Position numbers and translations under genes: made by a program. DNA of 64,000 nt, from assembly GCA_944363505.1 (NCBI GenBank), contig CALVUD010000002.1, positions 210,516 through 274,515 of the forward strand, given 5' to 3'. Origin of the DNA: an uncultured Clostridia bacterium (GTDB lineage Bacteria; Bacillota; Clostridia; Christensenellales; DTU072). Shown here one piece after another: positions 3,194 through 24,842 of this stretch. A model generated the notes under the pieces. The model was not told the DNA's origin. It ran no database searches and worked only from the letters and a program-made list of their open reading frames with translations. Numbering within the stretch: position 1 is the stretch's first letter; each line of letters starts with the position of its first letter.

Positions 3194-4458
3194 AGCTCCT
3201 CCTCGGAAGCGAGCAACAGCTCCCTGACGTTCACGGAAGCGTCCTTTGCCACGAAAGACGCCGCTACCTTGTCAAAATCAAACGTTTCTTCTATAACTTC
3301 GGTTACGTCGGAGAGAGTAACCGCTTCGATCTCGGTCAAGACTTTGTCAACGTCGTATGTTTGTCCGGACAATACGTAAGCTCTGCCCGCCGCCCGCATC
3401 AGCGCGGTCGCGCTTTCGGAGCCTAAAACCGTGCCGGTCTTGAGCTGTTCCTTGGCCTTTCTCAGTTCCTCCTCCGTTACTCCGCGTTTCATGCCCGATA
3501 TTTCCTCGGCAACGGTTTGAACGGCTTCCCGCACGCTTTCCGGATTAGTACCGAGATAGATCTCCAAAACTCCGTCGTCCTTTGCCGCGCCGGGCAACGA
3601 ATACACGTCGTATGCAAGCCCTTTCCTTTCCCTGACGCTCTGGAACAATCTGGAGGACATTCCGCCGCCTAATATGTTCGACGCGATCTTCAGCGGAACC
3701 GCACGCCGGTCGGAATACGCGTATCCCGGGAAAGCCATGGCTATGACAGCCTGTTCTATCTGCTTTTCGACGCCGACGTATCCGTAAACGGGCGCGACCT
3801 TTTCCATCGTCGCGCATTCCCTGACGTTCGTAAACAGCGAATCGAAATATTTTTCCGCGAGTCCTGCCGCGCGTTCGTATTCGATTTTTCCCGCCACGGA
3901 AATGACGGTATTGCGAGCGCCGTAATGCAGTTTCATGTATTCGCGTAATTCCGCGGGTTTGAAGGAACGCACGTTTTCAGTCGTGCCGAGAATGGGTCTG
4001 CCCTTTGCGGTATTTCCGTAAAGCGCCGTACTCAGAGCGTCGAAGCACACGTCGTCGGGATCGTCGAGACTGCGGTGGATCTCCTCGATGACGACTCCCT
4101 TTTCGCGTTCGGCTTCCTCCTCGGGAAAAGTCGAACGGAAAAAGATGTCCGACAGTATCTCCATACAATCCTCGGCGTGCTCGTAAGTGGACACCGTATA
4201 AAAAGAGGTCATCTGCCTGGCGGTAAAAGCGTTCATCTGTACTCCGAGCGATTCCGCCTCCCTGGCTATGTCGAAAGCCGTCCTCTTTTCCGTGCCCTTG
4301 AAAAGCATGTGTTCAATAAAATGCGAAATGCCCGATTGCTTCTCCGATTCGTAATCGGCTCCGCAACCCACATATATCCCTATCGCAACGCTTCTGGTGG
4401 AATCCGTTCCGTTATACAACAGCGTCGAGCCGTTAGGCAATTTTACAATTTTTTCCAT
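3190..4458 (-). CDS. M16-family zinc peptidase (insulinase-like)
   Basis: HxxEH zinc box in HFIEHMLFKGT. Start moved from the track start (4515) to ATG 4458 (MEKIVKL) because a GGAG Shine-Dalgarno lies 5 nt upstream. Confidence 0.85.
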   Translation of the reverse strand: MEKIVKLPNGSTLLYNGTDSTRSVAIGIYVGCGADYESEKQSGISHFIEHMLFKGTEKRTAFDIAREAESLGVQMNAFTARQMTSFYTVSTYEHAEDCMEILSDIFFRSTFPEEEAEREKGVVIEEIHRSLDDPDDVCFDALSTALYGNTAKGRPILGTTENVRSFKPAELREYMKLHYGARNTVISVAGKIEYERAAGLAEKYFDSLFTNVRECATMEKVAPVYGYVGVEKQIEQAVIAMAFPGYAYSDRRAVPLKIASNILGGGMSSRLFQSVRERKGLAYDVYSLPGAAKDDGVLEIYLGTNPESVREAVQTVAEEISGMKRGVTEEELRKAKEQLKTGTVLGSESATALMRAAGRAYVLSGQTYDVDKVLTEIEAVTLSDVTEVIEETFDFDKVAASFVAKDASVNVRELLLASEEEL

Positions 4459-9615: not shown

Positions 9616-11337
9616 TTATACTTTTATAGTCATCGAATCCTTCATTTCTTCTATTCTGTCCGCGCATTCCGAATACGGGCAGGTAATTATTTCTCCTGTG
9701 GAGCGGATCTTAATCTCCGCCTCGTCGCGCTCCAGCGCCCTCGGGCTTACCACGAGTCTCAGCGGTATTCCCATCAGGTCGCAATCGGCGAACTTGAATC
9801 CCGCGGACTGTGCCCTGTCGTCCATCAGCACTTCCACTCCGCGCTTTTCCAGCTCGGCATACAGTTCTTCGGCTTTCGCCCTGACGCGTTCGTCGTCGGG
9901 ACGTATCACGCATAAATATACGTGCCACGGCGCCACGGACATCGGCCAGTTCAGACCTTTTTCGTCGGCGGATTCCTCGGCTATGGAAGCTATCGCGCGC
10001 CCCACGCCTATGCCGTAGCAACCCATTATCGGATTAACGGCCTTGCCTTCGGCATTCAGTACCGTCATGCCCATGCTTTCGGTATACTTGGTTCCGAGCT
10101 GGAAGATGTTGCCTATTTCTATACCGTTTTCAACCGTCAGTTCCGCACCGCATACGGGGCACTTCTGACCGGGCTTGACTTTGGCGATATCGAAACTTTC
10201 ACTTATAACGAAGTCCCTTCCCTCGCAAACGTTTTTGATATGGTATTCGGGCTTGTTGGCTCCCGTAACCATATTTACGGCGCCCCGTAACGATTTATCG
10301 TAAACGACGATAATATTCTTTTCCGGCAGTCCGACTGGACCGATGTTGCCCGCGGTAAGCGTGCCGTCGGAAAGCGCCGCGGGCACGACCTCCGCCTGCA
10401 AAACCTTTTTGAGTTTCGCTTCGTTTACCTCGAGATCGCCGCGGATGAACGCCACGACCGTGTGAACGGAATCGCCTTTTATATTATAGCACACCGCCTT
10501 TATCGTCCTTTCCGCGGATACGTCGCCCAGGTACTTCGTGACCTCGGCGATCTCCTTGGCGGACCCGGTATACACTTCTTCGGCTTTTTTCGCTTCCTCG
10601 GCGGGATAGTTTTCGTTAGCGGCGGTAGCGACTTCCATATTGGCTTTCAGACCGCACTTGGGACAAATAACGATACTGTCCTCGCCTATCGGGGTCAGCA
10701 GCATGAATTCGTGAGAGATCCTGCCTCCCATCATGCCCGAATCGCTGGTGACCGCAATGAAATTCTTCATGCCTATGCGGCGGAAAATGCGGTCGTATGC
10801 GTCGTATGCCCTTTTATAATATGCTTCGAGGTCTTCTTGGGTCATATGAAAAGAATATGCGTCTTTCATTGTGAACTCTCTGACCCTGATAAGTCCTCCC
10901 CTCGGACGACCTTCGTCGCGGAACTTGGTCTGTATCTGATATATCATGAAAGGCAGCTGTTGATAGCTGTTCACCGCATCGCGCGCGAACTGTACCGCCG
11001 CCTCCTCATGGGTCATGCCCAGCACCATGTCGCGGGCGTTTCTGTCCTTGAAACGCACCATTTCGTCGCCTATCGACGTATATCTTCCGGACTCTTCCCA
11101 CAGTTCCCTGGGCATTACCACGGGGAAGGAACATTCCTGTCCGTCCAGCGCGTCCATTTCCTCGCGGATAATATTTTCGATCTTTCTTGCAATACGCTTT
11201 GCGGGCATTGCAAGCGACCAGATACCGTTGGCGACGAGCTTTATATAGCCCGCGCGGATCATCAGAGAATGGCTTTTTATTACGGCGTCCGAAGGAGCGG
11301 TCTTGGTGCGTTCCCCGACCAGTTTGGAAATTCGCAT
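9616..11337 (-). CDS. proS: Proline--tRNA ligase (bacterial type with editing insertion)
   Basis: 573 aa. N-terminus MRISKLVGERTKTAPSDAVIKSHSLMIRAGYIK and overall class II ProRS layout. Confidence 0.95.
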   Translation of the reverse strand: MRISKLVGERTKTAPSDAVIKSHSLMIRAGYIKLVANGIWSLAMPAKRIARKIENIIREEMDALDGQECSFPVVMPRELWEESGRYTSIGDEMVRFKDRNARDMVLGMTHEEAAVQFARDAVNSYQQLPFMIYQIQTKFRDEGRPRGGLIRVREFTMKDAYSFHMTQEDLEAYYKRAYDAYDRIFRRIGMKNFIAVTSDSGMMGGRISHEFMLLTPIGEDSIVICPKCGLKANMEVATAANENYPAEEAKKAEEVYTGSAKEIAEVTKYLGDVSAERTIKAVCYNIKGDSVHTVVAFIRGDLEVNEAKLKKVLQAEVVPAALSDGTLTAGNIGPVGLPEKNIIVVYDKSLRGAVNMVTGANKPEYHIKNVCEGRDFVISESFDIAKVKPGQKCPVCGAELTVENGIEIGNIFQLGTKYTESMGMTVLNAEGKAVNPIMGCYGIGVGRAIASIAEESADEKGLNWPMSVAPWHVYLCVIRPDDERVRAKAEELYAELEKRGVEVLMDDRAQSAGFKFADCDLMGIPLRLVVSPRALERDEAEIKIRSTGEIITCPYSECADRIEEMKDSMTIKV

Positions 11338-11338
11338 C

Positions 11339-11704
11339 TTACGCCTCCGCCACCGTAAACGTCAACGTGGTTTTAACGCCTGCAAAAGCGATGTTAAGAG
11401 TGTATTCCTTTGCCTGGGTAAACTTGCCTTTGTCGTCGAGACCGAGCGAATCGAGGTCGTATTCTATCGCCGCCGTGGTCGTAACCTTGCGTTCCTCTTT
11501 GTTGGACAATATCGCCGTAACGGTTATGTCCGAGGTGTCGAACGCGTCGCCGACGACGTATGCAGTGTCTTCCGCGAATTCGGCTTTTATCGCCGTAACG
11601 GTCGGCGTGTCGGAATCCGACTTCTTGCAGGCGACTACTGCCGCCGCGATTACGAAACACATAGCGATTACGAGTATCAAAGATACGATTTTACGGGTTT
11701 TCAT
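11339..11704 (-). CDS. Small lipoprotein with one bacterial Ig-like domain
   Basis: Signal peptide with lipobox (VVAC). The remainder has the beta-rich Y.VGD.FD...I.V.A pattern of Big-type domains. Its stop lies 1 nt before the proS ATG. Confidence 0.6.
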   Translation of the reverse strand: MKTRKIVSLILVIAMCFVIAAAVVACKKSDSDTPTVTAIKAEFAEDTAYVVGDAFDTSDITVTAILSNKEERKVTTTAAIEYDLDSLGLDDKGKFTQAKEYTLNIAFAGVKTTLTFTVAEA

Positions 11705-11761
11705 TTTACACTGTTTCCTTTTTCCCGCCGGTCAGCGGATATCGTTATTTCATACAAAGAC

Positions 11762-11791
11762 ATTATATAATAAATATGCGCGTTTAGTCAA
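11762..11791 (-). promoter_or_regulatory. Promoter for the lipoprotein-proS unit
   Basis: Minus strand: TTGACT (11791-11786), 18-nt spacer, TATAAT (11767-11762). Confidence 0.45.
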
Positions 11792-11847
11792 GCGTTATAA
11801 TCTGCGGCAAGCGCTCCGCGCATATACGCAAAATAAGCATAAAAAAA

Positions 11848-12109
11848 GTGCGCCCACTCCGACCTGCCCTACCGGATCGGCTCATGCGCAGGCGGCTCCT
11901 TCAAAGTTTCCTCGTGGCACATCCCGGAATCGCTTAGTGCTGCTGCGGTCAAGCTCTGACACGGTTCACGACACGAAATTGCACAAGACCTTGCTATCAA
12001 CGCTCCTTACGCACGTCGGCTTCCCATAAAACAGGCCTCGGTGGGTGTTCTACCCTGCTGTAGCGGATTGCAGGTTACAGGGCACCGCTAGCTCCCCGTA
12101 TAGCACAAC
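11848..12109 (-). ncRNA. ffs: Signal recognition particle RNA, long Bacillus-type (with Alu domain)
   Basis: Minus strand reads ...GGGGAGCTAGCGGTGCCCTGTAACCTGCAATCCGCTACAGCAGGG... (Alu-domain box as in B. subtilis scRNA, from memory). It also reads ...GAACCGTGTCAG...GCAGCAGCACTAAG... (helix 8 region). The 5' GTGC pairs with the 3' GCAC and is followed by T7. A consensus promoter lies just upstream. About 262 nt; ends are +/-5 nt. Confidence 0.8.
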
Positions 12110-21745: not shown

Positions 21746-21844
21746 TTTTTCTCCTTAAGGGTATAGTCTTTATTTAATTCTATCACATACGGAACCTATT
21801 CGAACATTTTTTGAATTTTTAAGTATTTATTCCAAACCGAACAG

Positions 21845-21868
21845 AAAAAAGGCGCATAGAGCGCCTTT
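21845..21868 (-). terminator. Rho-independent terminator after the 78-aa ORF
   Basis: AAAGGCGC-N5-GCGCCTTT followed on the minus strand by TTTTTTCTG. Confidence 0.65.
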
Positions 21869-21917
21869 ATCCTTCTATTATAGTCCATTAAAACACCGCT
21901 TCTAAAAAATGCAATTA

Positions 21918-22154
21918 CTATAAATTAAACGATTCTTTAAGCAAGCTGATCAATTGCTTAGCCATCTCTTTACTGATATGTATGACTTGACTTTGCTTTC
22001 CTTTTTCTATCCGATCAACGGAACCAAATGTTTGAATACGAACAAATTTTTCTTCATTATTCGTACAATCGTTATATTGCGCATCACAACAAGTTATCTT
22101 ACCTTTCATCACGTAGTTTTCTTCTTTTTTTGTGATTTTTTTAATAATCGCCAT
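21918..22154 (-). CDS. Hypothetical 78-aa protein (orphan, AT-rich codons)
   Basis: GAGGT RBS 9 nt before the ATG, own terminator downstream, very AT-rich upstream region. I cannot assign a family. Confidence 0.5.
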   Translation of the reverse strand: MAIIKKITKKEENYVMKGKITCCDAQYNDCTNNEEKFVRIQTFGSVDRIEKGKQSQVIHISKEMAKQLISLLKESFNL

Positions 22155-22318
22155 ATGATGATTTACCTCATAAAAAATAATTATATATATATTATATTAT
22201 AAAACTTATTAATAAAATCATTCCAAATAAAATTAAAGGCTAAAATAATTTTTAGTTATAATAAATGTATAAGATTTGGCAGATAATAAAGCAGTTTACT
22301 AAAATGTAAACGATCACG

Positions 22319-22358
22319 GTCCGAATCATGAAAAAAGGGCGCAAGATACGCGCTTATC
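22319..22358. repeat. Distal copy of the 40 nt that follow tRNA-Leu (direct repeat of 23084-23123)
   Basis: 38/40 identical by manual alignment. The two differences fall in the terminator stem. Confidence 0.85.
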
Positions 22359-22365
22359 TTTACGG

Positions 22366-22384
22366 ACCAAACCGAGGAGAAGGG
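22366..22384. repeat. Inverted copy of the tRNA-Leu 3' end (ACCA) plus the following 15 nt
   Basis: accaaaccgaggagaaggg matches the reverse complement of 23116-23134 at 18/19 positions. Confidence 0.8.
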
Positions 22385-22390
22385 ATATTC

Positions 22391-22556
22391 CGTTGCGCCC
22401 GCCTGAACGGACGGGCGCTTCCGTTTACACCCTGCGGGAGCGTCTTTTCGCCCGTTTCGTCGGGAGCGAAGCTCGGCACGGAACCGTAGCCTTCGCTTCT
22501 ACCCCTAGAACCGAACGAAAATCCCCATCCCTCGGGCGCCGAGTACGCTGAAAGAA
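22391..22556. repeat. 166-bp GC-rich hairpin-dense element, copy A
   Basis: 164/166 identical to 22752-22917. The flanks are unrelated AT-rich DNA. No shared ORF. Confidence 0.9.
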
Positions 22557-22751
22557 TTTAAAACGGATAAATGCACTTTATAATTCGGTTAAGACAAGAA
22601 AGTTTATAATTAAGCAAATAACCGAAGTTTTAAAATTTTGGATTGATTGCATTATATAATTGCATTATCGACGTATTTCTTTTACCGCACTTTTAAACCT
22701 ACTTGGCAGCGAGAAATTGACGTTTTCGCCCGATTTCAAGTGTAGAAGTCC

Positions 22752-22917
22752 CGTTGCGCCCGCCTGAACGGACGGGCGCTTCCCGTTACACCCTGCGGGA
22801 GCGTCTTTTCGCCCGTTTCGTCGGGAGCGAAGCTCGGCACGGAACCGTAGCCTTCGCTTCTACCCCTAGAACCGAACGAAAATCCCCATCCCTCGGGCGC
22901 CGAGTACGCTGAAAGAA
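22752..22917. repeat. 166-bp GC-rich hairpin-dense element, copy B
   Basis: Same as copy A, offset by 361 bp. The only differences are at 22784-22785. Confidence 0.9.
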
Positions 22918-23043
22918 ATTATAGAATAAGCAATTTTTGATAAAGGCGTGTTTTAAATTTCCTTATAACTGTTTTAGTTTAAAAACCGAGCGATACTTAC
23001 GCAGGAAGCGGACGAAAACGGCTTTTCTAAGCGTATTTTCGTC

Positions 23044-23076
23044 GCGCCTGTCCGTTCAGGCAGGCGCAAGATTATC
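23044..23076. repeat. Inverted 5'-terminal fragment (about 33 nt) of the 166-bp element
   Basis: The reverse complement GATAATC--TTGCGCCTGCCTGAACGGACAGGCGC aligns to GATATTCCGTTGCGCCCGCCTGAACGGACGGGCGC of copy A. Confidence 0.8.
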
Positions 23077-23083
23077 GACCGAA

Positions 23084-23123
23084 GTCCGAATCATGAAAAA
23101 AGGGCGCAAGATGCGCCCTTATC
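23084..23123. repeat. Proximal copy of the 40-nt direct repeat (native tRNA-Leu 3' flank)
   Basis: See 22319-22358. Contains the tRNA terminator. Confidence 0.85.
23096..23120 (-). terminator. Rho-independent terminator of tRNA-Leu
   Basis: Minus strand AAGGGCGC-ATCTT-GCGCCCTT followed by TTTTTT. Confidence 0.75.
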
Positions 23124-23130
23124 CTCGGTT

Positions 23131-23213
23131 TGGTGCGGTCGATGGGACTTGAACCCATACGGTCTCCCATACGCCCCTCAAACGTACGCGTCTGCCTATT
23201 CCGCCACGACCGC
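23131..23213 (-). tRNA. tRNA-Leu (anticodon GAG), long variable arm, CCA encoded
   Basis: The minus strand GCGGTCGTGGCGGAATAGGCAGACGCGTACGTTTGAGGGGCGTATGGGAGACCGTATGGGTTCAAGTCCCATCGACCGCACCA folds as a class II cloverleaf. The anticodon loop is TTGAGGG. Confidence 0.9.
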
Positions 23214-23282
23214 ATTAAGCACGGGAACGCAAATTATATTAACATACCCGTTTGCTTTTTGCAACAGTTTTCCCCTATTTTT

Positions 23283-24842
23283 TCAACCGTCGCTCGCGGT
23301 GTGCGCTTTTTTCTTGGCGGCGCGTATATTGTGTAGGCGATGAATCGCTTTCATTACGCTTTTCAACGGAGACGCGTGCGGGTTTTTGCCTTTTTTATCC
23401 TGTTCGAATACTCCGACGTATTCGATATAAGGTTTCAGTCGACACGAATCGATAACGATTTTGATTTCGTCGGTCCTGACGGCGCGGAAAAACGCTATCC
23501 TGTTAAAGCCTATCGTTTTGCCGTAATAAACGGTTTTGAACTTTCCGTTGACCTTTGCCTCTATCCTGAAACTTTCCACGCGCTGTGAAAACGAAACGTT
23601 CTCGATCAGCCTCAGTTTATCAACTTTGCAAGTCTTTGCCAGCTTCAGCGTTATTTCGTAGCTGTCCGCCTCGTCTTTAGGAGTATAATAACCCGTGCTT
23701 TCGAAAGAATTTTTGTCGAAACCGAAACGGAACATGTTTTTTGGTTTGAAACCCTCTTCGTGTACGGGCGCGGTTACTCCGTCCACCGTTACGGGCTTGG
23801 AGAATGCGGCGTTCTTTCTGTCGGCAAAACGCACCAGCCTGTCCACGTCGGCGTCGTTCAGTCTCCCCGTAGCGTCCGGCGGTACGTTCAAAAGAAGCAG
23901 CGAATTCCCGCCTACCGCCGTGTAATAAATGTATAACAGATTATTTACGGAGCGGATACGGTGATCCTGAGACTTATGGTAAAACCAGCCCGGTCTTATG
24001 GAGACGTCCACCTCGGCGGGCGACCATACGAACTCGGAATATTTTTCGAGCATTTCGCGGCTCCCCAGCTCTTCTCCGAACATTTCGACGGAAGGCGCTT
24101 TCATGTTTTCGGATTCCTCGTGTTGGCTCTGTTCAATGATGCTCTGAGTGCCATAATCCATTTCGGGAATAACGCACCACTCGCCGTCTCTGGCAAAACC
24201 GCCTTCGTTGCCGACCCATCTGACGTCGGGACCGCAATTCGAGATAACGGCTTTGGGCTGAAGCTTTCTGATAACTTCGTAGTACCTGTTAAAATCGTAT
24301 TTCTGTACGGGCTTGCCGTCCGAAGCGGCGCCGCAGGCGCCGTCAAGCCATACCGCGAAAATTTCTCCGTAGCCCGTCAGCAGTTCTTTCAGCTGGGCAA
24401 CGTAAAAGTCGTCGTATTCCGCGCTTCCGTAAAGCGGACAATTTCTGTCCCATGGCGATAAATAGATCCCGAACTTTACCCCGTGCTTTTTGCAAGCCGC
24501 CGCGACTTCCTTTACGACGTCGCCCTTGCCGTCCAGGTATGGACTGGATTTTACCGAGTAATCTGTGGTTGCGGTCTGCCACATGCAGAAACCGTCGTGA
24601 TGTTTTGCGGTAAAGATAATTCCTTTCGCTCCCGCAAATTTGAGCACCTTAACCCATTGTTCGGCATCCTGATTCGTGGGATTGAAGATTTCCGGCGAAA
24701 GCGTTCCGTCGCTCCATTCCTTGTTCGCAAACGTATTCAGACCGTAATGAATAAAGGCGTTGAAGTTATCTCGTTGAATACTTCTTTGCACTCTGGAAGG
24801 CACTACCGAGGTATAAAGTTTAAGTCTTTCTACTGACGTCAT
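23283..24842 (-). CDS. Alpha-L-fucosidase (GH29) with C-terminal beta-sandwich domain
   Basis: GH29 boxes FNAFIHYGLNTF, KHHDGFCMW, FAVWLDGA. Confidence 0.85.
   Translation of the reverse strand: MTSVERLKLYTSVVPSRVQRSIQRDNFNAFIHYGLNTFANKEWSDGTLSPEIFNPTNQDAEQWVKVLKFAGAKGIIFTAKHHDGFCMWQTATTDYSVKSSPYLDGKGDVVKEVAAACKKHGVKFGIYLSPWDRNCPLYGSAEYDDFYVAQLKELLTGYGEIFAVWLDGACGAASDGKPVQKYDFNRYYEVIRKLQPKAVISNCGPDVRWVGNEGGFARDGEWCVIPEMDYGTQSIIEQSQHEESENMKAPSVEMFGEELGSREMLEKYSEFVWSPAEVDVSIRPGWFYHKSQDHRIRSVNNLLYIYYTAVGGNSLLLLNVPPDATGRLNDADVDRLVRFADRKNAAFSKPVTVDGVTAPVHEEGFKPKNMFRFGFDKNSFESTGYYTPKDEADSYEITLKLAKTCKVDKLRLIENVSFSQRVESFRIEAKVNGKFKTVYYGKTIGFNRIAFFRAVRTDEIKIVIDSCRLKPYIEYVGVFEQDKKGKNPHASPLKSVMKAIHRLHNIRAAKKKAHTASDG

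Follow-up and report, generated by a model that had tools for sequence, protein, structure and literature searches.

Repetitive extragenic palindromic (REP) sequences and the REPINs built from them, ERIC elements and Correia repeats are known mainly from Proteobacteria, in which they are scattered in intergenic space. Bacterial interspersed mosaic elements (BIMEs) are mosaic combinations of REP units with other short motifs. ERIC (or IRU) and Correia-type elements are imperfect palindromes or miniature inverted-repeat transposable elements (MITEs) of about 100-155 bp that occupy transcribed intergenic regions and have the potential to form an RNA hairpin or terminator. In palindrome-associated transposable elements (PATEs) terminal inverted repeats are lacking, and insertion takes place 3' of a fixed tetra- or pentanucleotide. 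A REPIN is an inverted doublet of REP hairpin units; compensatory changes are common in REPINs, which form ordered clusters (PMC3116915). Here we describe a hairpin-forming repeat element that lies behind the gene for tRNA-Leu(GAG) in a 64,000-nt stretch (the window) of contig CALVUD010000002.1, from an uncultured Clostridia bacterium, and that recurs, in other arrangements, behind other tRNA and tmRNA genes. Judged by analogy, its closest relatives in kind are REPINs, BIMEs and ERIC-like elements, of which it appears to be a variant, unusual in its strict position at the CCA end and in its built-in terminator.

The initial annotation of the locus, made from the sequence alone, had reported two near-identical 166-bp copies, here called R1 and R2. 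These do align without gaps and match at 164/166 positions, the only differences being GT at 22423-24 versus CG at 22784-85; a repeat search widened the pair to 171 nt at 98% (22390-22560 and 22751-22921). Since identity is lost within 1 nt on the left and within a few nt on the right, the edges of the repeat are as sharp as was claimed. The four hairpins named in the annotation, (a) to (d), are likewise all found in R1 and in R2. Three further repeats had been overlooked: a third copy (E-A), inverted and truncated, a 40-nt duplicated terminator (22319-22358 and 23084-23123) and a 22-nt inverted repeat that bounds the whole. The spacer and flanks, which had been described as unrelated, proved to be other modules of the same repeat family, namely B, a degenerate M-body and the right terminal inverted repeat (TIR-R). 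The 166-mers are modules of a larger hairpin-forming repeat element and not stand-alone units.

This larger element is a 775-bp composite (22363-23137; Table 1) between the CCA end of tRNA-Leu(GAG) and its downstream flank. The outer arm of its 22-nt inverted repeat, TIR-L, consists of the CCA end of the tRNA together with the trailer. Read in the direction of the tRNA, the composite runs TIR-L, terminator module t, linker U, positions 1-84 of E-A, spacer2 and inverted R2, and continues with CGGGA-CTTCTAC-B, B-tail, degenerate M-body, inverted R1, a linker and TIR-R. Distal to TIR-R, t occurs once more, and the conserved flank comes after it. Because E-A stands in the orientation opposite to that of the R copies, the whole composite folds back on itself. 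In the minimum free energy fold the two ends, TIR-L and TIR-R, pair with each other, as do the hairpin-1 regions of E-A and R1. The single-strand fold of the composite reaches z = -8.7 and -8.2 against shuffled sequences; a single 166-bp copy folds moderately better than its shuffles (z = -2.6 on the + strand, z = -3.3 on the - strand).

The usual and commonest unit adjoining a tRNA gene is a 135-nt imperfect palindrome with an intrinsic terminator of its own in the left arm. It begins with CCA and trailer (TIR-L) and passes through terminator t and the centre CATTTAC-N6-GTAAAC to a right arm that ends in TIR-R, the reverse complement of the trailer. The termini read CCAAAC...GTTTGG and start at the CCA itself. 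Eight such units, from seven tRNA, tmRNA or remnant loci (tRNA-Leu gives two), were aligned. They have one hairpin in common, of 44 pairs, 9 of them changed on both sides, and 97.4% of the cells are paired. Neither the observed pairing nor the number of compensated pairs nor the covariation score was matched in any of 500 shuffles (0/500), and in slid-partner controls the pairing falls to 37-51%. The two ends also co-vary, GG/CC at tRNA-Leu being replaced by AC/GT at tRNA-Ser (L047; handles of this form denote the loci and contigs compared) and a C-G pair by T-A at tRNA-Asn (L049). The palindrome is real and is maintained by compensatory changes, with which action as RNA, as single-stranded DNA (ssDNA) or as duplex DNA is alike compatible. 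An attempt to assign the tRNA-sense strand from G-U pairs was abandoned when the apparent bias vanished on counting (5 G-T versus 4 A-C mismatches).

The family is specific for the site immediately 3' of tRNA and tmRNA genes. A scan of 185,579 species genomes with the pattern of the 5' hairpin gave one match, in a metagenome-assembled genome of an uncultured Clostridia member (L001), where an E-type element stands behind tRNA-Thr(CGT) with the same trailer and terminator as those of the tRNA-Leu in the window. Other loci were reached through proteins: since gene callers sometimes call spurious antisense open reading frames (ORFs) on the GC-rich modules, a protein database could be queried with such an ORF, and contigs of relatives were fetched. 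Arrays were found behind tRNA-Leu (L046, L050), tRNA-Ser(TGA) (L047), tRNA-Thr (L048), tRNA-Asn (L049), tRNA-Pro(CGG) (L054) and tmRNA (L053; RF00023, 51.5 bits), and also behind tRNA 3'-end remnants displaced by inserted regions (L051, where the region is a restriction-modification island, and L052). A profile search of 5.8 billion proteins returned only 25 clusters of spurious ORFs, all metagenomic, whose tails point to two or more additional tRNA contexts. Without exception the family sequence starts at the CCA or overlaps it, and the TIR-L trailer is present behind tRNA-Thr, -Ser, -Pro, -Asn and tmRNA genes on other contigs. The window holds three copies of hairpin 1, all at one locus, and all known copies lie behind tRNA or tmRNA genes. 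The further copies in other strains and at other loci dispose of the possibility, raised in the initial annotation, of a merely local duplication with no copies elsewhere.

Some of these loci have features of their own. On the reverse strand of L049, a stretch of about 70 nt that starts at the 3' end of tRNA-Asn (3412-3488) consists of this 3' end with an A-run, a terminator hairpin of its own and an inverted copy, perfect over 24 nt (TTTTTTTTGTGGCTCCCCCTGTTG); the same 3' end recurs about 200 nt further on as a direct copy of 17 nt. The inverted copy makes this a second palindrome formed at a tRNA end, unrelated to that of the family. Behind the arrays at the Thr (L048, after 3968), Asn (L049, 3300-3370) and Pro (L054, about 1700-1770) loci, on the reverse strands, there is a conserved module of the form GGTGCGC..GTTTG-loop-CAAAC-C(T/C)GATGAG, which holds TGGTGCG, the reverse complement of a tRNA 3' end, and the motif CUGAUGAG. 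A hammerhead-like motif in this module (CTGATGAG) has no match to an Rfam ribozyme at the Thr, Asn and Pro loci and was rejected as such.

Strains of the same species, the contigs of which were found by exact match to the flanking proteins, differ widely at the tRNA-Leu locus. Their flanks are 98.4-99.9% identical in the many assemblies retrieved, and between them the arrays are reshuffled, with presence/absence polymorphism. One strain (L021) lacks the whole of 22317-23110. Six others (L028, L039-L043) have the tRNA, the trailer, a single terminator t and then the flank. In L022, L031, L033 and L034 an M-body and a terminator form a unit of about 127 nt, present singly or in tandem up to three times, along with a complete E (A + B); L023 and L024 have an inverted R joined to B. 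Two R copies are found in L050, where the array of the window is permuted and in tandem and a different distal flank follows. Module B is directly behind E-A in other strains; in the window it lies between the R copies in reverse orientation. The left context of R2 (GTAGAAGTCCCG) recurs in L023, L024 and L050, and the context of R1 (AGGGATATTCCG) in L027, L037 and L050; L048, at tRNA-Thr, has it with a single base changed (AGGGATATCTCG). Many contigs terminate inside t or R, as is expected of repeated modules. An invertible switch was considered and rejected: in no strain is the segment between the inverted repeats in the opposite orientation.

Two rearrangements near this locus may be mentioned here. 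At L025 (1-340), t and the distal flank of tRNA-Leu are joined, at the 5' edge of t, to another upstream region consisting of the end of a membrane-protein gene and a long hairpin; the join is either a rearrangement or one made in assembly. At L022 (3649-7739), the CAT-LplA segment downstream of the window's 514-aa gene is replaced by a tyrosine integrase in split form (SAM_3 and Phage_integrase domains) together with an E2/JAB/ThiF gene set of CBASS type.

E-A and R are inverted paralogues, 79% identical over 119 nt. E-A was recognised as such through L001, where module B comes after it, and the copy in the window is 97% identical by BLAST to the E-A of L022. The two modules have the same 5' hairpin, with a compensatory T-A pair in E-A in place of the C-G of R, and the block GAGCGAAGCTCGGCACGGAACCGTAG..CCTTCGCTTCTAC is common to both; the middle has diverged at equal length. 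The tRNA-Thr locus (L048) contains a head-to-head fusion of E-A(1-64) and inverted R(1-82), this R being 90% identical over 82 nt. Since R adjoins TIR-R there as well, it is to be regarded as the right-arm counterpart of E and not as an independent element.

In a structure alignment of 17 R/E copies the 5' hairpin is kept in all. It has 9 bp, its stem is invariant except for one covarying pair (U-A in 11, C-G in 6), and its loop varies (TGAAC, TGCC, TGCCC or TACCC). A second conserved hairpin is the short GAAAA/UUUUC, in which A-to-G changes are tolerated as G-U pairs. Covariation among homologues had been proposed as a check on the predicted helices, and it bears out the 5' hairpin only, by the one pair; family-wide, helices (b), (c) and (d) are left unsupported. 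Elements (b) and (d) belong to the R subtype, (c) is broken without compensation in four E variants, and the middle 45 nt of R and E are not conserved in structure.

The label "non-coding" requires some qualification, as each 166-bp copy has a 52-aa ORF with a TTG start that spans almost the whole repeat (22393-22551 in R1, 22754-22912 in R2). This ORF has no homologue among the 5.8 billion proteins, and a 1-nt indel breaks its frame in the paralogue E; a small protein gene was rejected on these grounds and the label stands in substance. The most variable stretch of R is the 10 nt after hairpin 1 (22419-22428 and 22780-22789, with the same positions in L023, L024, L048 and L050). Among R copies otherwise 95-99% identical it takes the forms TTCCGTTTAC, TTCCCGTTAC, ATACGCATAC and TACCGTTTAC, which are reshuffled between the two R contexts from strain to strain.

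The initial annotation had offered two interpretations of the 166-mer. A structured non-coding RNA gene present twice is poorly supported: there is no Rfam match and no directly adjoining promoter or terminator, and most of the helices are unconserved. Rfam 15 at gathering threshold recovered only the signal recognition particle (SRP) RNA and tRNA in the window. At E<=10, nothing was found on R in 21800-23500 except CRISPR-DR9, at 19.7 bits versus a gathering score of 45, and at E<=0.1 the 11 related loci gave only tRNA, tmRNA and chance matches. A promoter scan detected no sigma-70-type promoter directly upstream of a 166-bp copy and no terminator directly downstream; the + strand has promoter-like sites directed at R1 and R2 (22276-22305 and 22557-22584). 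The idea of independent transcription units was also dropped, there being no convincing promoter in the canonical elements, while the -10 candidates that the M-body has are not conserved. The second interpretation, a small non-autonomous mobile element, comes closer, but the unit was wrongly chosen, the 166-mer being one module of a larger element bounded by inverted repeats. The IS200/IS605 (PATE-like) descent suggested for it is unsupported, as there is no conserved target oligonucleotide and neither a Y1 transposase nor another recombinase in the 64-kb window.

With REPs, REPINs and BIMEs the family has in common units that are non-coding, extragenic, GC-rich imperfect palindromes, a pair of inverted units (E-A and R) that builds a larger hairpin with compensatory changes, and ordered higher-order clusters in mosaic combinations. 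It differs from them in scale, having arms of 110-166 nt and a basic palindrome of 135 nt as against about 25 nt for REPs. The GTAG/GTGG head is absent; hairpin 1 is preceded by (C)GTT or TTC, and GTAGAAG is found only at the other end of module A. Copies apparently amount to a handful per genome rather than hundreds, and they lie strictly at tRNA/tmRNA CCA ends instead of random extragenic positions, with an intrinsic terminator built in. No REP-associated tyrosine transposase (RAYT) is encoded by any of the window's 46 ORFs or at the loci fetched, and the host belongs to the Clostridia and not to the Proteobacteria. In view of the longer units, the missing GTAG head, the apparently low copy number and the lack of a visible RAYT, the family is not filed as REPIN.

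ERIC and Correia-type elements resemble the family in unit size, in forming one long imperfect palindrome, in having variants with internal insertions, in lying just after genes and in the potential to serve as an RNA hairpin or terminator. In contrast to them, it shows no duplication of TA or any other target, no similarity to their sequences, a specificity for tRNA ends and a very narrow taxonomic range. The resemblance to PATEs lies in the subterminal hairpins (t near the left end; hairpin 1 and (d) in R), the missing target duplication and the strand, the tRNA-sense strand being the lagging-strand template as judged from the negative GC skew of the + strand. Such a placement is compatible with transposition through ssDNA, though no proof of it. 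Unlike PATEs, the elements end in inverted repeats, the sequence to the left of the R/E modules varies (TTCCG, TCCCG, TTTCG, GTTC or AATC), and no TnpA or TnpB was found. Islands carried by integrases and cis-mobilisable elements (CIMEs) likewise occupy tRNA/tmRNA 3' ends, accrete in tandem and vary in content between strains; the elements described here differ in being bounded by inverted repeats, non-coding, 0.13-0.8 kb long and without an integrase.

The family is made up of terminator t, M-body, the paralogous hairpin modules E-A and R, module B and the ends TIR-L and TIR-R. Its sharp-edged modules, inverted hairpin doublets, well-kept long hairpin, tandem clusters, polymorphism, spread and lack of coding content fit a selfish palindromic repeat. 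We give about even odds (a probability of roughly 0.5) to the view that it is a selfish, non-autonomous, palindromic mosaic repeat of the REPIN/ERIC/BIME kind, specific for tRNA 3' ends and diversified by recombination. Such an element would be moved or copied by a factor acting in trans, which probably recognises the hairpin on ssDNA, a mode of recognition proposed for REPINs and their RAYT and demonstrated for IS200/IS605; we infer both this moving enzyme and some basis for its CCA specificity. Insertion behind tRNA genes may be tolerated because the element brings its own terminator and would be harmless to the tRNA and to downstream genes. Homologous recombination among t, M, R and E could then generate duplications such as R1/R2 and permuted arrays. 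The same recombination might also lead to collapse to a single-terminator site and to exchanged flanks (L025, L046, L050). A more far-reaching version is tentative and, in our opinion, somewhat doubtful. According to it, the family would be a previously unrecognised kind of terminator-bearing palindromic mobile DNA that homes to the CCA end of tRNA and tmRNA genes via a hairpin-recognising enzyme, with R/E as the recognition hairpins, or else the helix of trailer and anti-trailer would be a processing or attenuation device for tRNA read-through.

Several observations weigh against a selfish repeat. True REP, ERIC and MITE families are abundant, and here the copy number is apparently low, with the single match among the species genomes and the 25 ORF clusters cited above. 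No truly naive insertion site was seen, every locus retaining at least TIR-L and t. The three clean right ends show no target-site duplication, the flanks being GCT/CCC (L048), CCA/ACG (L049) and CCA/GGT (L051). Transposase, integrase and reverse transcriptase genes are absent from the 46 ORFs of the window, which are housekeeping genes of a sporulating Clostridia member (including FtsK, DnaB, YqfD and aminoacyl-tRNA synthetases), and none lies next to any array. No autonomous partner with the same ends was found. As the hairpin mismatches are unbiased by strand, recognition as ssDNA, as RNA and in double-stranded form cannot be told apart. Finally, compensatory changes in a palindrome can arise without selection, via gene conversion or template switching between the arms.

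The conserved pairing could also be read in terms of RNA. tRNA and tmRNA promoters are strong, and read-through from them would create an 18-bp helix of trailer and anti-trailer, CCA included, which might serve as an RNase III-type stem or attenuator, release a small RNA (sRNA) from E/R or control downstream read-through; alternatively, R and E might be sRNA paralogues. The compensatory changes that hold this helix and the entire 135-nt hairpin together would suit such a role, and so would the R/E 5' hairpin with its invariant stem, single covarying pair and variable loop, the tolerance of G-U pairs in the second hairpin, the second terminator that directly follows the anti-trailer in most arrays, and the + strand promoter-like sites aimed at R1 and R2. 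However, the T-run intrinsic terminator stands between trailer and anti-trailer, so that most tRNA transcripts should stop before the right arm is reached. Moreover, no sigma-70-type promoter was detected inside the canonical elements L047 and L049, R has no downstream terminator, the mismatches lack the strand bias discussed above, the middle 45 nt and helix (c) are not kept up, and some strains are without the whole array. We consider an RNA role unlikely. It is very improbable that the arrays are cassettes of the type I toxin-antitoxin kind, with a hydrophobic peptide encoded by region X, E-A as a structured 5' untranslated region and R as the RNA antitoxin. Between module B and the M-body there is indeed an ORF of 21-36 aa (M[A/T]I[V/G]Y[T/S]VFLIRI...; MAIVYTVFLIRIG...), with a strong Shine-Dalgarno sequence (AAAGGGGGAG) and an ATG, on the reverse strands of L047 (about 520-590), L049 (about 2900-2990) and L052 (about 100-170). 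The three intact copies, however, differ by 5 non-synonymous changes versus 1 synonymous, the ORF is frameshifted in L053, and in the species of the window the start is ATT and the frame is lost. No promoter was found, and R is homologous, not complementary, to E-A, each in its own sense. The toxin ORF was discarded on the substitution pattern, which weakly refutes it, and on the frameshift.

Two other explanations take the position at tRNA genes as their starting point. tRNA and tmRNA 3' ends are the classic targets of integrases, and the arrays might be decayed attachment-site (att) arms of integrative elements (islands or CIMEs) with tyrosine integrases, left as tandem remnants by repeated integration and imprecise loss. 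The variable segment of the window is indeed flanked by 40-nt direct repeats, L049 has the 17-nt copy of the tRNA-Asn 3' end about 200 nt downstream, in L051 and L052 an inserted region has at its far end a tRNA 3' remnant with the array behind it, and the downstream flank of tRNA-Leu is a break point of synteny in L046 and L050. Yet the boundaries of the unit are inverted repeats, and the direct repeats are the terminator module, not the tRNA 3' end as an att remnant or CIME would require. The direct repeat of tRNA-Asn at L049 flanks a different, 200-nt insert. Against this origin too, the same trailer and terminator are found behind six unrelated tRNA/tmRNA genes whose 3' ends are alike only in CCA, and no integrase lies beside any array, that of L022 being about 3 kb off, beyond two conserved genes. 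The arrays of L049 and L051 are still attached to the displaced tRNA 3' copy, which argues that they are older than the islands and no part of them. We find att remnants quite implausible. Nor do we put much faith in an origin without mobility, slight as its chances seem, in which tRNA genes, being highly transcribed, would undergo replication errors at the terminator hairpin, through template switching or fold-back priming, and the resulting inverted duplications and triplications would be spread by unequal crossing-over and gene conversion between tRNA flanks. Such errors would account for the direct-inverted-direct form [trailer-t-centre][inverted arm][t-centre-flank] and, through copying from arm to arm, for "compensatory" changes without selection. 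An independent example would be the perfect 24-nt inverted copy of the tRNA-Asn 3' end at L049, which is centred on that gene's own, unrelated terminator. On the other side, most of the different tRNAs are followed by a right arm with one and the same end, TGGTCCG, which does not match the local tRNA and hence was not made locally. Transfer between loci is required, moreover, by units of the t2/M1 subtype that are 97-100% identical behind tRNA-Leu, tRNA-Pro and a tRNA-Thr remnant and have unique flanks beyond the arrays.

Should the selfish-repeat interpretation be true, a Clostridia family confined to the nucleotide after the tRNA/tmRNA CCA and provided with its own terminator would show miniature mobile DNA choosing its target in a new way. 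That synteny and metagenome assemblies of this lineage break at tRNA flanks would then be explained in part as well. With its strong compensatory signal the family offers a clean system in which to ask what keeps bacterial palindromes, whether selection on an ssDNA intermediate, an RNA role or arm-to-arm copying. As a caution, hairpin-dense duplicated non-coding elements beside tRNA genes should be checked as parts of larger arrays before they are called non-coding RNA genes. A literature search returned no description of such repeats specific to tRNA 3' ends.

A number of known element types were considered and excluded. A classical MITE derived from a DDE transposon would agree with the inverted ends, but target-site duplications are absent. 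Remnants of Tn7-like or CRISPR-associated transposon ends do not fit, as the termini are not TGT...ACA, lie at the CCA itself and lack a 5-bp duplication; a casposon-derived element would have a target duplication of 14-15 bp, which is likewise missing. An IS200/IS605 PATE is contradicted by the varying left flanks of R/E and by the terminal inverted repeats of 18-22 bp in the family unit. Integron attC sites, CRISPR, retrons and diversity-generating retroelements were discounted because their core motifs are unfit, the differences are not adenine-specific, and the window has no integrase, Cas or reverse transcriptase. Group IIC introns insert after terminators, but a fragment of one was discounted because no Rfam group II intron family came up at E<=10 in 21800-23500 or at E<=0.1 in the related loci. 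An origin from plasmids, phages or viruses was dismissed: blastn found no match for R, the whole composite or the canonical L049 element, and seven viral pattern scans gave nothing but one chance match inside a coding region (L055). The 18 metagenome matches to the hairpin pattern have only the 22-24-nt pattern in common and hence are not homologues.

Table 1. Features of the tRNA-Leu(GAG) locus, in window coordinates
Feature	Position	Strand	Remarks
tRNA-Leu(GAG)	23131..23213	-	ARAGORN; Rfam RF00005, 50.5 bits; composite begins at its CCA 3' end
TIR-L (outer arm)	23116..23137	-	tRNA 3' end CGCACCA + trailer AACCGAGGATAAGGG; inverted repeat I3, 22 nt, 91% complementary
Module t (inner copy)	23084..23122	-	intrinsic terminator AAGGGCGCATCTTGCGCCCTT + T-run, then CATGATTCGGAC; direct repeat D2, 38/40
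Linker U	23070..23083	-	TTCGGTCGATAATC; joins t to E; same junction in L022, L031, L033, L034, L048, L050
E-A (third copy, truncated, positions 1-84)	22986..23069	-	paralogous to R 1-84; tRNA-sense; inverted repeats I1/I2
Spacer2, AT-rich	22918..22985	.	between truncated E-A and R2; 98.5% conserved in independent assembly L050
R2	22752..22917	+	second 166-bp copy, antisense to tRNA; 164/166 to R1
Module B (positions 1-42) + CTTCTAC + CGGGA	22700..22751	-	BLAST: B of L022, 100% over 42 nt; distal end of L001, 95% over 38 nt
B-tail (22627-22699) + degenerate AT-enriched M-body (22557-22626)	22557..22699	-	homologous to L050, L051 (84-94%), weakly to M-body
R1	22391..22556	+	first 166-bp copy, adjoins TIR-R; right arm of foldback
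TIR-R ("anti-trailer", inner arm)	22363..22384	+	inverted repeat I3; tRNA-sense reading CCCTTCTCCTCGGTTTGGTCCG; co-varies with TIR-L across loci
Module t (outer copy)	22319..22358	-	direct repeat D2; distal boundary of variable region
Flank palindrome GTTTAC-N6-GTAAAC	22294..22311	.	resembles centre of 135-nt unit (CATTTAC-N6-GTAAAC)
Hairpin (a)	22395-22418 and 22756-22779		
Hairpin (b)	22451-22464 and 22812-22825		
Hairpin (c)	22465-22497 and 22826-22858		
Hairpin (d)	22531-22543 and 22892-22904		

A terminator-like site runs from 23120 to 23100 within the inner copy of t. A second terminator subtype, t2 (GGGCACATCTTGTGCTC; L050, L051 and L054), differs from GGGCGCATCTTGCGCCC by changes that keep the stem. 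It is accompanied by its own M-body subtype and is found behind three different genes at 97-100% identity.

On the distal side of the composite, the flank palindrome overlaps divergent promoter-like sites (22276-22311), TTTACA-16-TATTAT on the - strand and TTGGCA-18-TAAAAT on the + strand. Downstream of it lies a 78-aa ORF (21918-22154, - strand) in an islet of 25-32% GC, which has no Pfam match and is conserved in all strains. Elsewhere in the window, the bacterial large SRP RNA is located at 11846-12108 on the - strand (RF01854, 154.8 bits). It overlaps the listed 280-aa ORF at 11187-12029 on the + strand, indicating that this ORF is spurious.

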